Virus record (IMG/VR): IMGVR_UViG_3300017784_005363 | Location: 21,419-85,418 of that record | Length of the DNA: 64,000 nucleotides | Direction: 5' to 3' (one strand) | From: a virus | Lineage: Duplodnaviria > Caudoviricetes | Part shown: piece by piece, positions 31,901 through 36,560 of the stretch | Position numbering within the stretch: position 1 is the first letter of the stretch | How the letters are laid out: each line of letters opens with the position of its first letter | Position numbers and translations under genes: made by a program | Notes under the pieces: generated by a model | Database searches by the model: none | What the model was told of the DNA's origin: nothing | What the model saw: the letters and a program-made list of their open reading frames with translations, nothing else

Positions 31901-33638
31901 ATTAAAGAATATGAAAACTCTTTTGTCATTAGCTGAATCATTAAGAATTTTAGAAACTTCTATGGAAACTGTAAAACAAGAAGGTGAATTTGGTGATAAA
32001 GGTTTACTTAAAAAAATTAATATATCTTTAACTAATATTACTACAAATTATCCAGAATGGAAAAATCAAATGGAAAGTTTATTAAGTATATTACAAACTG
32101 TTGAAATAGAAACTATTAATGGAGAAAAGAAAAAGGTATTTGATGGTAATAATTTTATTTACATTCCTGGTACTTTACAATTGAAAGATGAATTTAGAAC
32201 AGAAGCTAATGTAGAAAATTGGGAAAAGTTTAAAGAAGATACTGATGGTAATTCACCACAGAATTTAATTTTTGCCTTGTCTAAACAAGCAAAAAGAAAA
32301 ACTCAAGGTAATTACTCAGGGGAAGATAAAGTTCCTATATTAGGGTCTGAAATTGGTAAACTTGGTAGTGTATTTACAAGATATTTATATGAGAATACAA
32401 ATAGACAATATGGTTCAAAGAAATCAGATTTAGCTACTGGACAATTAAATGTAAAAGGTAATAAACTTATTTTAGCAGAACATGCTCCAACATTTTTAAC
32501 TCACTTATTATTAGGAAATGGATGGGTAAATACTTTAGGTGGTATGGTTATAGGAACTTCAGCTTTATCTGCTGGTGCTTTTGTAAGTGCAGCTGCTATT
32601 GTACCTATTGTTATTATAGGTGGTTTAGTTATTGCAAATAGAAAAGTAATTAAAATGAATCATCTTAACAAAGATGAAATGAAATTAGCTTTAAATTATG
32701 CAAAAGAAGTGGCATTTAGGTCTATAAATATTATACCTAATTATCTTCAAATGAGTCTAATTCCAGAAGATAAAATCCATGCAATTAAATTTGTTCCAAC
32801 AGGAATGACAGCTAAAGACAGAGATATTTTATCTGCTTCTGCACAAGAACTATCTCAAAAAATGGGAATGTTTATTGGTAGTGCCATGACATCTTTAATA
32901 CTTTCTGGTATTTATACATTATTAGCAGTGGATGACGATGATGAAGAAAAGAAACAGAAGATGGCTTCCTTAGAAGTGAAATTAAATACTTTAATTAATT
33001 TAAAAAATTCATTATATGCTGATATTGAAAAATATACTAACCCTAATATATTTGCTGATAATTCTACAACATTAATATATTTTACAATGCTTCAGAGAAA
33101 TTGGAATAAACTAAATAAAACAATTGATGATTATGGGACTGATAAGATTGAAGAAGGTGAATTAACTTCTGAACTATCTAAGTCTTTAGGGTTTTTAGTT
33201 GGTTTACCAAAGGCTGTTAATGAAATTACAGAACCAGGAACATTAATAAATAGTGAAAGAGTCTATGAAGAAGGAGATTGGTTTGATGAATTAATTGATA
33301 ATAAGACTAAACCTGCTGAACAAAACTATAAAGAAGCTACTCAAGAACTGAGAGAACCAATGAGAAATAAATTGGTTAATCAAATTAGAGATGCTTATAG
33401 AGATTCAGATAAGGAAATGTCAGAAGAAACTATCAAAGAGTTGGCTACAGCTTGGTTAAGACAACATGATTTAACCAAAGATAAAGGTGAAACTTATGAG
33501 TCATTATTCAATGATAAAAAGAAATGGAGTGATGCTGAGAAAGAGATTGAAAAAATCAATTCAAGTAATGTACATCAAATCCAGAAAACTAAAAGAAAAC
33601 AAAAAAGCTCTGATGAGAGTTCTTCAGTAGCTAAATAA
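28977..33638 (+). CDS. Large ejected virion protein with C-terminal transmembrane segments
   Basis: 1553 aa; hydrophobic stretches LGGMVIGTSALSAGAFVSAAAIVPIVIIGGLVIA and MGMFIGSAMTSLILSGIYTLLAV; last gene of the late module. Confidence 0.6.
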   Translation: MSCTLKEQFKQEFGIDLQNGRLIPELMKVRVSSWIHNNASVMKEMSFNDEVLGIEYRKSNSDHGGTDYFIKYDEKAEEQWEAYKYHQSSQDALESIQETLNFNQYYNYAINENHEDDNVQGDYLFEDIDVVDNPVNFIEWKNNRKALKEKLERQAIQYRKHNNDRRKLKLVNKAIAEIDKQLTKFNENDMFIVHETLMQEINVLDKLLKDITTNVIDAAIILESNRVKERINELSIYFNGIDLININSPVNNSLRELLENTFEDDKLYKVQKGVSNLYEKYNKNLFTIIESTFANDSLVIEHKKNMSPEEFKNFYTTSIELIKSREVFIGETQRDASKVLGAASVDSVLADLLFSGRENYYNQEVGQTQILIQNFTDSWKKIKDKVDANKDYITTQLYQKDKLGVRTNKLISPFTTAFYKLLKDVNSAKFAFFGNKSLQSYKTWMNILKNNADFIQPYKLKVYQELYKDNAMFKSFFTYSDQEMLDYENELKSKLGVALYEIELNKQQEMIKNYINEQENGLFSSASFVYSKNPFSFINNFYSDNFNKPDNTTSEYLEPAYTQMIPKMDKTDEYNPEEYYNTELKKMESGEFGQELMDVYKHAYNLLTEYINPSLQAEDVNVTSLELMNQVDILDREVIKNLSFFQKVPLQLKNLWNSILENYTTNNVQDKEDKNKLKSKYSSYGKNKTKILQQIYNNKSQIELINLLSKEGVDVNSSAVVKASKRQLVNSLVQLELNKYSSTNLFNSITESTEIVRNMNARKNTMNMFDLFEDYVKNKDRQNDRELNYLEDWSRLNLQKEKYLKDSPDPKIMHGNIGKTYFSLDRNIKRLLDLEKDNLNYNYSFKLDDDNYTTENGTFYKNEQEISKEEIDIKYNEYTQELLKLLGVDFTVGAIANGFLAGIYKRAMKSLGPGRYFLNRFAGLNQNMSAAASKEFGFDMKNLLISRRFLRGDILRKMTHWDSARKLLGLQETNRLKNMKTLLSLAESLRILETSMETVKQEGEFGDKGLLKKINISLTNITTNYPEWKNQMESLLSILQTVEIETINGEKKKVFDGNNFIYIPGTLQLKDEFRTEANVENWEKFKEDTDGNSPQNLIFALSKQAKRKTQGNYSGEDKVPILGSEIGKLGSVFTRYLYENTNRQYGSKKSDLATGQLNVKGNKLILAEHAPTFLTHLLLGNGWVNTLGGMVIGTSALSAGAFVSAAAIVPIVIIGGLVIANRKVIKMNHLNKDEMKLALNYAKEVAFRSINIIPNYLQMSLIPEDKIHAIKFVPTGMTAKDRDILSASAQELSQKMGMFIGSAMTSLILSGIYTLLAVDDDDEEKKQKMASLEVKLNTLINLKNSLYADIEKYTNPNIFADNSTTLIYFTMLQRNWNKLNKTIDDYGTDKIEEGELTSELSKSLGFLVGLPKAVNEITEPGTLINSERVYEEGDWFDELIDNKTKPAEQNYKEATQELREPMRNKLVNQIRDAYRDSDKEMSEETIKELATAWLRQHDLTKDKGETYESLFNDKKKWSDAEKEIEKINSSNVHQIQKTKRKQKSSDESSSVAK

Positions 33639-33669
33639 AAAAATTAGAAAGTGAGGGTTTTTAAATAAT

Positions 33670-33703
33670 AAAGCCAGTAAGAAATTAATCTTACTGGCTT
33701 TTT
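33670..33703. terminator. Probably bidirectional intrinsic terminator at the convergence of the two modules
   Basis: aaagccagtaag-aaattaat-cttactggcttt, perfect 12-bp stem; T-run on + strand, shorter A/T-rich tract on - strand. Confidence 0.85.
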
Positions 33704-33704
33704 G

Positions 33705-33777
33705 TAGTGCTAGAGGGGATTGAACCCTCATGGACAGGTTGAAAACCTGCAATCCTAACCAATTAGATGATAGCACC
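33705..33777 (-). tRNA. tRNA-Glu(TTC)
   Basis: GGTGCTA acceptor, GCAGG-TTTTCAA-CCTGT anticodon arm, GAGGG-TTCAATC-CCCTC T arm; 73 nt; CCA not encoded. Confidence 0.93.
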
Positions 33778-33782
33778 ATTTG

Positions 33783-33855
33783 TGGAAATGCCTGGATTTG
33801 AACCAGGGACACCTAGATTTTCAGTCTAGTGCTCTACCAACTGAGCTACACTTCC
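33783..33855 (-). tRNA. tRNA-Phe(GAA)
   Basis: GGAAGTG acceptor, GCTC/GAGC D stem, CTAGA-CTGAAAA-TCTAG, CCTGG-TTCAAAT-CCAGG; 73 nt. Confidence 0.95.
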
Positions 33856-34094
33856 AAATTACTTAATAATGACATAGGAATACCTATGTCAAATCCTATA
33901 AAATTTGTAATTCTCTTTTCTTTTACTACTTGTAATTCATCACATAATTTTTCATACTTTTTTTCCAATATATCATATTCATAATCTGAAATAATTGATA
34001 TATCTACTAAAAGAATATCTTTACATTCATAATAAAAATATCTATATTTTCTAAGATTTTTATGAATTACATCTAATTCTTCTATTGTTGTCAT
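33846..34094 (-). CDS. Stand-alone NAD-dependent DNA ligase domain Ia-like protein
   Basis: LRKYRYFYY...ISDYEYDILEKKYEKL matches the LigA N-terminal pattern (HHEYLYH...IPDAEYDRL); no adenylation KxDG domain follows. Confidence 0.65.
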   Translation of the reverse strand: MTTIEELDVIHKNLRKYRYFYYECKDILLVDISIISDYEYDILEKKYEKLCDELQVVKEKRITNFIGFDIGIPMSLLSNLEV

Positions 34095-34107
34095 AATTTA
34101 TATTTAG

Positions 34108-34178
34108 TTGACCTAAAAGGACTCGAACCTCTAATGACTGCACCAAAAACAGTAGTGTTACCATTACACTATAGGTCA
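34108..34178 (-). tRNA. tRNA-Gln(TTG)
   Basis: TGACCTA/TAGGTCA acceptor (U1-A72), ACTGT-TTTTGGT-GCAGT, AGAGG-TTCGAGT-CCTTT; 71 nt. Confidence 0.93.
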
Positions 34179-34245
34179 TTTTCATTGTGGGTATAACATA
34201 TTGATACACACTCAATCCTTAATCAAATTGTCATTAAGGCAATTG

Positions 34246-34329
34246 CAGAGAGTATAGGATTTGAACCTATGTGGGTGTTACCCCTTCTGATTAGCAGTCA
34301 GATGCTTTTAGCCACTCAGCCAACTCTCT
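34246..34329 (-). tRNA. tRNA-Ser(GCT)
   Basis: AGAGAGT/ACTCTCT acceptor, TCTGA-CTGCTAA-TCAGA, long variable arm GGGT-AAC-ACCC, G73 discriminator; 84 nt. Confidence 0.93.
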
Positions 34330-34331
34330 AG

Positions 34332-34664
34332 TTATTCACTATGTTCTATCATATGACAATTAGCACATAATATTTCAAGATTTTCTCTTTTATTATTATC
34401 TCTATTCCTATCTATATGATGAACTTGAAGTGCTTTTATATTTTCAAAACCACATTTTTCACAAACAGAATCTTCTTTAATTATATTTCTATAAGATGCT
34501 TTACCTGTTGTATAGTTTGGATGATTTTCACCACTTTTAAATAAACTATTATTTACAGTATTAGAACAACTTCTTGAACAATAACAGTTTCCTGTTTTTG
34601 ACTTTTTTATTTGTGCTGGAGACCTATTAATCTCTTCACCACAATTTGCACAATTTACTTTCAT
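34332..34664 (-). CDS. HNH homing endonuclease with N-terminal zinc-ribbon motifs
   Basis: CANCG, CYCSRSC, CEKCG...VHHIDRNRDNNKRENLEILCANCHMIEH. ATG 34664 is preferred; the track's 34730 start runs through the tRNA-Pro remnant and promoter. Confidence 0.88.
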   Translation of the reverse strand: MKVNCANCGEEINRSPAQIKKSKTGNCYCSRSCSNTVNNSLFKSGENHPNYTTGKASYRNIIKEDSVCEKCGFENIKALQVHHIDRNRDNNKRENLEILCANCHMIEHSE

Positions 34665-34668
34665 ATTA

Positions 34669-34700
34669 CAAATGTACAAACTTATATTGGGAATACCAAA
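34669..34700 (-). promoter_or_regulatory. Complete host sigma-A promoter TTTG-N20-TACATTTG, 4 nt before the HNH ATG
   Basis: -33 TTTG at 34700-34697 and -7 TACATTTG at 34676-34669; canonical Bacteroidota spacing. Confidence 0.75.
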
Positions 34701-34707
34701 ACTTTTT

Positions 34708-34745
34708 TCCCAAAGCAGACCTTCTACCAATTGAAATACATCCCT
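34708..34745 (-). pseudogene. 5' half (nt 1-38) of tRNA-Pro(TGG); 3' half absent
   Basis: AGGGATG TA TTTC AATTGGTA GAAG G TCTGC TT TGG GA, then unrelated sequence instead of the GCAGA 3' anticodon strand. No T arm or CATCCCT found nearby. Confidence 0.75.
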
Positions 34746-34750
34746 AAATA

Positions 34751-34782
34751 AAAAAATCCCTCTATTATTAGTAGAGGGATTT
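34751..34782 (-). terminator. Intrinsic terminator downstream of groEL and the small ORF
   Basis: aaatccctcta / tagagggattt 11-bp perfect stem followed on the - strand by a T tract. Confidence 0.85.
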
Positions 34783-34804
34783 GATTTGTTTTTAATTTAT
34801 TTGA

Positions 34805-34879
34805 CTAAATTCCATCATAATCTTCCCTCAATGTAAATTGTGGTTCTTGAAATAATGGATAGCTGAATAAATTTTTCAT
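34805..34879 (-). CDS. 24-aa small ORF MKNLFSYPLFQEPQFTLREDYDGI (or an sRNA) between a promoter and a terminator
   Basis: ATG 34879 to TAG 34805; 19 nt after a consensus -7 box; terminator follows. Confidence 0.4.
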   Translation of the reverse strand: MKNLFSYPLFQEPQFTLREDYDGI

Positions 34880-34898
34880 ATTGGATTGATTTATACTG

Positions 34899-34929
34899 CA
34901 AATGTAAACAAAATATTTACATAAACAAA
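34899..34929 (-). promoter_or_regulatory. Complete host sigma-A promoter TTTG-N19-TACATTTG
   Basis: -33 at 34929-34926 and -7 at 34906-34899, immediately after the groEL stop. Confidence 0.75.
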
Positions 34930-34931
34930 TT

Positions 34932-36560
<1,629 letters not shown>

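Follow-up and report, generated by a model that had tools for sequence, protein, structure and literature searches.

A free-standing HNH gene cassette has probably invaded the first gene of a phage tRNA array behind a candidate leader-peptide attenuator

The window analysed here is a 64,000-nucleotide stretch of phage DNA, bases 21419-85418 of an 85,418-bp IMG/VR virus record (IMGVR_UViG_3300017784_005363). The record has 27.8% G+C and an estimated completeness of 91%, leaving about 9% of the genome unseen. Downstream of a GroEL gene lies an array of tRNA genes, and the first of them, tRNA-Pro(UGG), is cut short at its anticodon loop and followed by a small HNH endonuclease gene. We consider it probable that a free-standing HNH homing cassette invaded this first gene and, by bringing its own promoter, bypassed a candidate attenuator that lies just upstream. 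The elements at the junction are these:

34745-34708, minus strand: remnant of tRNA-Pro(UGG), nucleotides 1-38, matching the intact gene of the relative L087 at 38 of 38 positions
34707-34330, minus strand: the whole HNH cassette, 378 bp
34707-34665, minus strand: 5′ end of the cassette, from the alignment of 10 cassettes, with a putative -33 element TTTG at 34700-34697 and a putative -7 box TACATTTG at 34676-34669
34693-34687, minus strand: TTCCCAA, within the cassette 5′ end, complementary to the anticodon-loop remnant
34664-34332, minus strand: HNH endonuclease gene, 110 amino acids, ATG at 34664, matched in Pfam and PHROGs
34329-34245, minus strand: tRNA-Ser(GCU), the first intact tRNA of the array, called by ARAGORN and by Rfam at 64.5 bits

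The remnant comprises the 5′ sides of the acceptor and anticodon stems, with the D arm between them, and the loop TTTGGGA (anticodon TGG), and it breaks directly after the loop, at A38. Standing alone, it is not called by ARAGORN. The Rfam tRNA model finds it only if the sequence is ended at 34706, and then with 11.5 bits (E 2.8); as the match covers model positions 1-38 and falls short of the RF00005 gathering threshold of 29 bits, the remnant fails as a complete cloverleaf. Its identity as a real half tRNA comes from L087, an 89-kb contig without the HNH gene. There, behind a hairpin identical to the one in the window, stands an intact tRNA-Pro(TGG) gene that is called by ARAGORN and scores 61.3 bits with Rfam. 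The first 38 nucleotides of that gene equal the window at 38 of 38 positions, and the identity stops exactly after A38. By this homology, 34745-34708 is a fragment of a tRNA-Pro(UGG) gene. A preliminary description of this DNA had reported a tRNA-Pro(TGG) 5′ half of 38 nucleotides breaking off past the anticodon, which the match to L087 confirms. It had also proposed that the HNH gene invaded or replaced a tRNA gene, and had predicted relatives with no HNH gene, an intact tRNA-Pro and no internal promoter; L087 is such a relative.

A 3′ half was sought across the 85-kb record, as the preliminary description had advised, using the complementary acceptor strand, T-loop motifs, and a T arm joined to an acceptor complement. 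These searches returned only the four known tRNAs and chance matches, and ARAGORN likewise calls four tRNAs in the entire 85,418-bp record. An Rfam search of 33500-35100 with E up to 10 gave the same four tRNAs and terminator-like noise, with no group I or group II intron. A GTTCGAA-like element found in the cassettes of some relatives was considered as a relic of the T arm and rejected, because no stem can be drawn around it.

The HNH gene, whose reading frame is intact, is present in a single copy and is the sole HNH gene of the genome. Its product matches Pfam PF01844 at 27.6 bits (cut-off 21.4, E 3.4e-6; 29.6 bits in the genome search) and PHROG HNH families down to E 4e-14, and it combines an N-terminal zinc ribbon with an HNH/CxxC core. 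Residues H82, H83, N91, N95, H108, C68, C71, C100 and C103 are invariant in 16 homologues, and H104 is nearly so. Across four cassettes the ratio of nonsynonymous to synonymous divergence (dN/dS) is 0.19-0.39, and the gene is under purifying selection. A Pfam scan with E up to 1 gives HNH and zinc-ribbon families only, with no GIY-YIG domain. As a separate open reading frame (ORF) with a putative promoter of its own and no group I or group II intron match, the gene is judged not to lie in an intron or intein.

Relatives were located through GroEL, the HNH protein and the tRNA-Pro pattern in IMG/VR, Logan and metagenomes. A DNA search of GenBank phages gave generic tRNA matches only and no close relative, and the 74 pattern matches in metagenomes were mostly unrelated tRNAs or chance. 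The protein search yielded 45 HNH relatives, and the surrounding DNA was examined for ten. At the same post-GroEL locus the gene is patchy: it is present in the window and in L088, and absent from L087 and L003. In L087 the GroEL gene is followed by a tiny ORF, the hairpin, and then tRNA genes for Pro, Asn, Met, Gln, Ile, Glu, Phe and His. In L003, whose GroEL is 73% identical, the tRNA genes behind the hairpin are Ala, Asn, Met, Ser, Gln, Phe and His, so that the two HNH-free loci keep 7-8 intact tRNA genes.

The loci that carry the cassette repeat the arrangement of the window to varying degrees. L088 (HNH protein 81% identical) has an identical tRNA-Pro remnant, the cassette, and a tRNA-Gln 2 nucleotides past the stop codon. 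L090 and L091 (77%) have a tRNA-Pro fragment reaching to the anticodon loop, the cassette and then a tRNA, the fragment of L091 being decayed, with a changed loop. More distant HNH genes (62-68%) occur in L169, L171, L172, L173 and L174. In three of them, L169, L171 and L173 (63-65%), the order is a 5′ tRNA-Pro fragment, the cassette and an intact tRNA-Pro; the remnant of L173 is internally deleted. In L174 the cassette comes last in the array, and the fragment preceding it ends with the same loop sequence. In L089 (73%) the cassette lies directly behind an intact but different tRNA-Pro, and in L172 a fragment of another tRNA lies upstream of the HNH gene. A truncated tRNA-Pro without an HNH gene, which the preliminary description had named as a finding that would count against it, was seen in no relative examined.

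The association with tRNA genes extends to the wider family, in which 33 of 35 full-length IMG/VR relatives have tRNA genes within 2.5 kb, the nearest being most often tRNA-Pro(UGG) or tRNA-Ala(UGC). Nucleotide identity between the window and L088 is 88% in the HNH gene, 71% at the 3′ end of the GroEL gene and 59% in the leader region. Patchy, more conserved than its flanks and near tRNAs, the gene looks like a free-standing homing endonuclease gene that inhabits tRNA arrays. Judging from the relatives, the window has probably lost tRNA-Asn and tRNA-Met in addition to the 3′ half of tRNA-Pro. A search for its exact pre-insertion allele (Pro-Asn-Met-Ser-Gln), made with the conserved spacer between tRNA-Ser and tRNA-Gln, gave the L003 contig only.

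The loci in which an intact tRNA-Pro accompanies the cassette deserve separate mention. In L169 (1480-1990), L171 (1410-1915) and L173 (220-715), the 5′ fragment lies upstream and a complete, diverged tRNA-Pro lies directly downstream of the cassette. By its sequence this arrangement is a partial duplication that preserves tRNA function. The intact copies differ from the fragments in the two stem pairs beside the anticodon loop. The intact tRNA-Pro(UGG) of L089 (2883-2957) departs from the usual anticodon loop by an A in place of G at position 37 and also differs in the flanking stem; it could be a cleavage-resistant allele.

The second part of our reading concerns the promoter that the cassette carries. 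The phage GroEL best resembles Flavobacteriaceae GroEL (64-65%), and the host is probably a member of that family. This resemblance supports the use of Flavobacterium promoter rules; a sigma-70 promoter scan does not apply to a Bacteroidota-type host. The Bacteroidota sigma-A consensus has a -7 box TAnnTTTG, in which neither n is G, preceded at about 19-21 nucleotides by a -33 TTTG (PMC6847099). The Flavobacterium -7 box occupies positions -12 to -5, with G at -5, the start of transcription follows it by 4-5 nucleotides, and about 5% of flavobacterial mRNAs are leaderless (PMC6847099, PMC9723704). The cassette has TTTG, a 20-nucleotide spacer, TACATTTG, 4 nucleotides and then the ATG, and this agrees with the consensus. 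The TTTG-N20-TACATTTG promoter, the HNH gene and the tRNA-Ser 2 nucleotides after its stop codon all lie where the preliminary description had placed them.

The 43 nucleotides preceding the ATG are homologous in 10 of 10 cassettes (alignment A1), and therefore arrived with the HNH gene. The -7 box or a TAnnTTGY variant is kept 4 nucleotides before the start codon in nine of the ten. The HNH mRNA is predicted to be leaderless, starting at the A of the ATG at 34664. Only 2 nucleotides separate the HNH stop codon from tRNA-Ser, too few for a terminator, so whatever is transcribed from the cassette promoter must run on into tRNA-Ser. The HNH message, as predicted, would have its start codon at +1 and no 3′ untranslated region, given RNase P cleavage at the tRNA 2 nucleotides past the stop. 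Such a minimal mRNA might keep nuclease levels low.

What the cassette promoter would bypass lies in the region between the GroEL gene and the remnant:

36542-34932, minus strand: GroEL gene
34929-34926 and 34906-34899, minus strand: putative leader promoter, -33 TTTG and -7 TACATTTG respectively, by pattern match
34879-34805, minus strand: leader ORF, 24 codons and a stop, identified by its codon-level match
34830-34823, minus strand: candidate antiterminator strand (region 2), within the leader ORF, from RNAduplex
34782-34747, minus strand: intrinsic terminator, a hairpin at 34782-34754 followed by a T run, free energy (dG) -13.4

A promoter, a tiny ORF and a terminator precede every tRNA array examined, and a promoter equivalent to that of the window stands before the tiny ORF in most related loci. 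Codons 5-15 of the window leader (34867-34835) specify Phe, Ser(AGC), Tyr, Pro, Leu, Phe, Gln, Glu, Pro, Gln and Phe. Nine of these 11 codons are read by tRNAs of the array, counting the amputated tRNA-Pro, and 10 of 23 in the leader as a whole. We compared leader and array at 11 loci (the window, L003, L087-L091, L169 and L171-L173). Summed over the loci, 127 residues of the leaders have a match in the array behind them, where proteome composition predicts 71.6. With arrays shuffled among leaders, 88.9 +/- 7.9 residues match and none of 20,000 shuffles reaches 127, although the loci are mutually related and the shuffle P values overstate their independence. The match count is conservative, as contig ends truncate two of the 11 arrays.

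The terminator is found at 11 of 11 loci, where its dG ranges from -13 to -19 kcal/mol and a U run comes after it. In the window it consists of an 11-bp stem, a 7-nucleotide loop and the T run, and here and in most relatives it ends 2-5 nucleotides before the first tRNA. It is identical in L087, differs by 1 nucleotide in L088, and shows compensatory changes in L003. Its 5′ arm is complementary to the strand at 34830-34823 (RNAduplex dG -10.9, z -3.6). A partner for this arm exists at 10 of the 11 loci, in nine of these inside the leader ORF, 13-38 nucleotides before its stop codon. The partner covaries with the arm, giving a summed dG of -134.3 against -60.3 +/- 6.4 when shuffled. Promoter, leader ORF and terminator/antiterminator pairing together form a candidate leader-peptide attenuator of the trp/his type. 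A literature search found no paper describing leader-peptide attenuation of tRNA arrays.

The leaders differ among relatives in two further respects. In L088, L089, L090, L169, L171 and L173, most of the relatives, the leader ATG follows the -7 box by 4-5 nucleotides, so those attenuator leaders are predicted to be leaderless mRNAs; the distance is 19 nucleotides in the window and 15 in L003. The second respect is the match between leader codons and tRNAs that are no longer present. Two CCA (Pro) codons remain in the window leader. The L088 leader (433-510) has five Asn and three Ile codons and precedes an array of Gln, Phe and His that has neither tRNA; the HNH-free L087 array has both. The leaders thus appear to record tRNA genes removed by invasion, Pro in the window and Asn and Ile in L088.

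The preliminary description had gone further with the cassette promoter. Seeing a strong terminator upstream, it took the cassette promoter to be the only one for the Ser-Gln-ORF-Phe-Glu operon and the cassette to be hard to lose for that reason. A hairpin with a T run does exist upstream of the remnant, but it is probably not an unconditional stop. Because it has a covarying alternative pairing within a codon-matched leader ORF, we read it as a conditional one. The first tRNA of L087 and of L003 lies 2-4 nucleotides past the hairpin with no promoter between, and these arrays must therefore be transcribed through the hairpin from an upstream promoter. A role for the cassette promoter as sole promoter of the array is accordingly not supported by the comparison of loci. 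The argument that the cassette is hard to lose fails with it, since without the cassette the array would still have its native promoter, under attenuator control. Most likely, the cassette promoter adds unregulated transcription that bypasses the attenuator.

From the anatomy of the locus, its homology to relatives, and the recurrence, conservation and covariation of its parts, we infer a mechanism in which nuclease activity on a tRNA target, use of the cassette promoter, attenuation and its bypass each play a part. The native control unit, about 150 nucleotides upstream, would comprise the promoter, the leader ORF and the terminator with its alternative pairing. A ribosome stalled on the matched codons would leave the antiterminator free and permit read-through into the tRNA genes, while a ribosome reaching the leader stop codon would sit between the two strands and let the terminator form. 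The cassette would have joined tRNA-Pro directly after the anticodon loop and replaced the 3′ half, probably along with the tRNA-Asn and tRNA-Met that follow in relatives. It would have brought a Bacteroidota sigma-A promoter from which the HNH mRNA starts at its own AUG. Transcripts from the cassette would continue into tRNA-Ser, Gln, Phe and Glu, and RNase P cutting at tRNA-Ser would trim the 3′ end of the HNH message. Placed between the switch and the tRNAs, the cassette would supply an unregulated entry point on top of regulated read-through, and its promoter would also express a nuclease gene that would otherwise be silent behind the terminator. The two Pro codons of the leader would be a fossil of the lost tRNA-Pro.

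Several observations weigh against this account. The fragment of L172 is not tRNA-Pro-like and the tRNA-Pro of L089 is intact; the anticodon loop of tRNA-Pro is thus not the site of every insertion. The junction of stop codon, 2 nucleotides and tRNA is the same in the window, where the tRNA is Ser, and in L088, where it is Gln, and a simple homing model does not explain a shared right-hand junction with a differing tRNA. The L091 cassette has no recognisable -7 box. The full promoter pattern occurs four times in the window against 4.4 expected, so it is not enriched, and across the genome the -7 box by itself is about as common as chance predicts. The support for the cassette promoter comes from its conservation in relatives and not from such counts. 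The kinship of the loci in the leader comparison, mentioned above, belongs here as well. Finally, the remnant shows no changes at 39 nucleotides in the window and L088 relative to L087, where about nine would be expected at the synonymous rate, and an unchanged remnant may be more than a dead relic.

This last point leads to an alternative that we regard as possible but doubtful, namely that the 5′ half is kept for a function: as the left homology arm for homing, as a stable RNA resembling a tRNA half, or as part of a TTGGGAA/TTCCCAA structure controlling the promoter or HNH translation. Synonymous divergence of the cassettes over the same comparisons is 0.28, which gives a neutral P of about 4e-5 for the unchanged remnant, and even the functional tRNA-Gln and tRNA-Phe genes of these genomes are only 59-85% identical. 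The same identity could arise from separate recent invasions of a conserved allele or from co-conversion of the flank, as well as from a half tRNA useful to the element, and the decay of the remnant in L091 and its internal deletion in L173 argue against such a function. The preliminary description had pointed to the pairing of TTGGGAA with TTCCCAA. The two stretches are indeed complementary, but statistics do not single the pairing out in the window (fold z -1.4, duplex P 0.11). Complementarity between loop and cassette recurs in the window, L088, L169 and L173, four of the 10 loci, and is significant in two of the 10; with so unremarkable a fold, we rejected the hairpin as a conserved structure and keep it as a minor point. 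Another alternative takes the hairpin to be an efficient terminator and the cassette promoter to be the only source of Ser-Gln-ORF-Phe-Glu transcripts, making the phage dependent on a selfish gene that is thereby fixed. The strength of the hairpin and its T run (dG -13.4), the lack of any other consensus promoter between hairpin and tRNAs, the conservation of the cassette promoter, and the absence of room for a terminator between the HNH stop codon and tRNA-Ser all fit this idea. We think it quite unlikely, because L087 and L003 have the same hairpin and no later promoter, yet keep their 7-8 intact tRNAs, and because the hairpin has its covarying partner in a codon-matched leader at 10 of 11 loci.

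It is also unlikely that the HNH protein has ceased to home, or never did, and serves the phage as a domesticated nuclease in recombination or amplification of the tRNA region, or against host or rival DNA. Purifying selection on the gene and the residence of the whole family in tRNA arrays would suit such a role, and SegB-driven amplification of tRNA genes helps phage T6 escape a defence system (PMC13096335). On the other side, patchy occurrence among close relatives and a cassette more alike than its flanks are the usual marks of a selfish gene. Homing and domesticated roles are mutually compatible. A tRNA-Pro that is split or trans-spliced, or else a degenerate group I intron with the HNH gene as its intron ORF, would account for a break at the anticodon loop, the place where tRNA introns and split tRNAs break, and phage group I introns often house HNH genes (PMC3984707). 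Such an explanation is nevertheless very improbable. The 85,418-bp record, estimated at 91% complete, holds no 3′ half, the intron search with E up to 10 gave no group I match, ARAGORN calls only its four tRNAs, and tRNA-Ser at 2 nucleotides past the HNH stop codon leaves no room for a 3′ exon.

Beyond the single locus, the invasion by a homing cassette that we favour suggests a broader and more tentative proposal. The HNH family may recognise tRNA-Pro(UGG) at its anticodon arm, invade again and again the first tRNA that follows a codon-matched leader attenuator, uncouple tRNA supply by means of a constitutive leaderless promoter, and keep the 5′ half as a homing arm or an RNA, with the leaders serving as a fossil record of deleted tRNAs. 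We would call this possible at present.

The remainder of the array in the window is composed as follows:

34178-34107, minus strand: tRNA-Gln
34094-33846, minus strand: ORF of 82 amino acids inside the array
33855-33782, minus strand: tRNA-Phe
33777-33704, minus strand: tRNA-Glu
33701-33670, minus strand: terminator at the end of the array

The 82-amino-acid ORF matches PHROG 3869 (NAD-dependent DNA ligase) with E 1.4e-5, over N-terminal profile positions 6-58 of 656 only, and is not found in the arrays of L003, L087 and L088. The spacer between tRNA-Ser and tRNA-Gln (34244-34179, minus strand, 66 nucleotides) is identical to that of L003 at 63 of 66 positions. The tRNAs on either side of it are far less similar to their L003 counterparts (69/97 for tRNA-Ser, 59/72 for tRNA-Gln). 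In the predicted fold the spacer forms two small hairpins (z -1.3), and Rfam gives no match to it; a small RNA and a signal for processing are both conceivable.

The locus is of interest on several counts. It offers an example of tRNA genes being removed from a phage array by a selfish gene. Because nature supplies alleles from both before (L087) and after the event (the window and L088), the cleavage site and the mechanism of homing are directly testable. A cassette lying between a candidate tRNA-sensing attenuator and the tRNAs amounts to a natural experiment in which regulated arrays can be compared with bypassed ones. The Pro codons retained in the leader are independent evidence that leader and array have evolved together.

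The attenuators of amino-acid operons (trpL, hisL, pheL, and the multivalent thr and ilvGMEDA leaders) combine a promoter, an ORF with regulatory codons, a terminator and a ribosome-dependent antiterminator. The phage locus has the same anatomy of promoter, short ORF, terminator and antiterminator. It differs in that the controlled genes are tRNA genes of a phage, that the leader lists many amino acids matching the array, and that the host belongs to the Bacteroidota, with several leader mRNAs predicted to be leaderless.

Mobile elements that rely on integrases enter tRNA genes, in many cases at the anticodon loop, and a fragment of the tRNA gene stays behind. The HNH cassette likewise sits beside a partial tRNA, and in L169, L171 and L173 it lies between a 5′ fragment and an intact tRNA-Pro. 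Unlike those elements, it has no integrase and no attachment repeats, it orphans the 5′ rather than the 3′ part, and in the window the tRNA is lost with no intact copy restored. Group I introns with homing endonuclease ORFs occur in tRNA anticodon loops (PMC3984707), and there, as here, a nuclease gene interrupts the tRNA at the anticodon loop. No ribozyme was detected in the window and there is no 3′ exon at the locus, so the tRNA-Pro of the window cannot be restored by splicing.

Among free-standing enzymes, MobA-E of phage T4 are HNH homing endonucleases that cleave or nick near their insertion site and co-convert the flanks (PMC2790892). Like them, the cassette gene is a free-standing HNH gene in a phage genome. 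The Mob genes lie between protein-coding genes rather than in tRNA arrays, and the two have only the HNH core in common, in a comparison made solely through Pfam and PHROGs.

The closest parallel in behaviour is T4 SegB, a free-standing GIY-YIG homing endonuclease of the T4 tRNA cluster that recognises a motif in the T-psi-C stem-loop of tRNA and whose spread removes tRNA markers from the recipient (PMC2330249). SegB is associated with tRNA genes across many phages and has recently been tied to escape from host defences that target tRNAs (PMC13096335). The cassette protein has an HNH core and a zinc ribbon instead of a GIY-YIG domain and is not a member of the SegB family. Its junction lies at the anticodon arm of tRNA-Pro rather than at the T-psi-C stem-loop; the cassette leaves half a tRNA and carries a conserved promoter for a predicted leaderless message, and its cleavage activity is something we infer. 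In other respects the two agree: each is a small nuclease gene among phage tRNA genes, with a target, putative for the cassette, in tRNA sequence; each is absent from close relatives and is associated as a family with tRNA genes over many phages, and the spread of each goes with a loss of tRNA markers in the recipient, as the missing genes of the window would suggest. The cassette probably represents an HNH-type counterpart of SegB in Bacteroidota phages, with a defined and recurrent junction at the tRNA-Pro anticodon arm.

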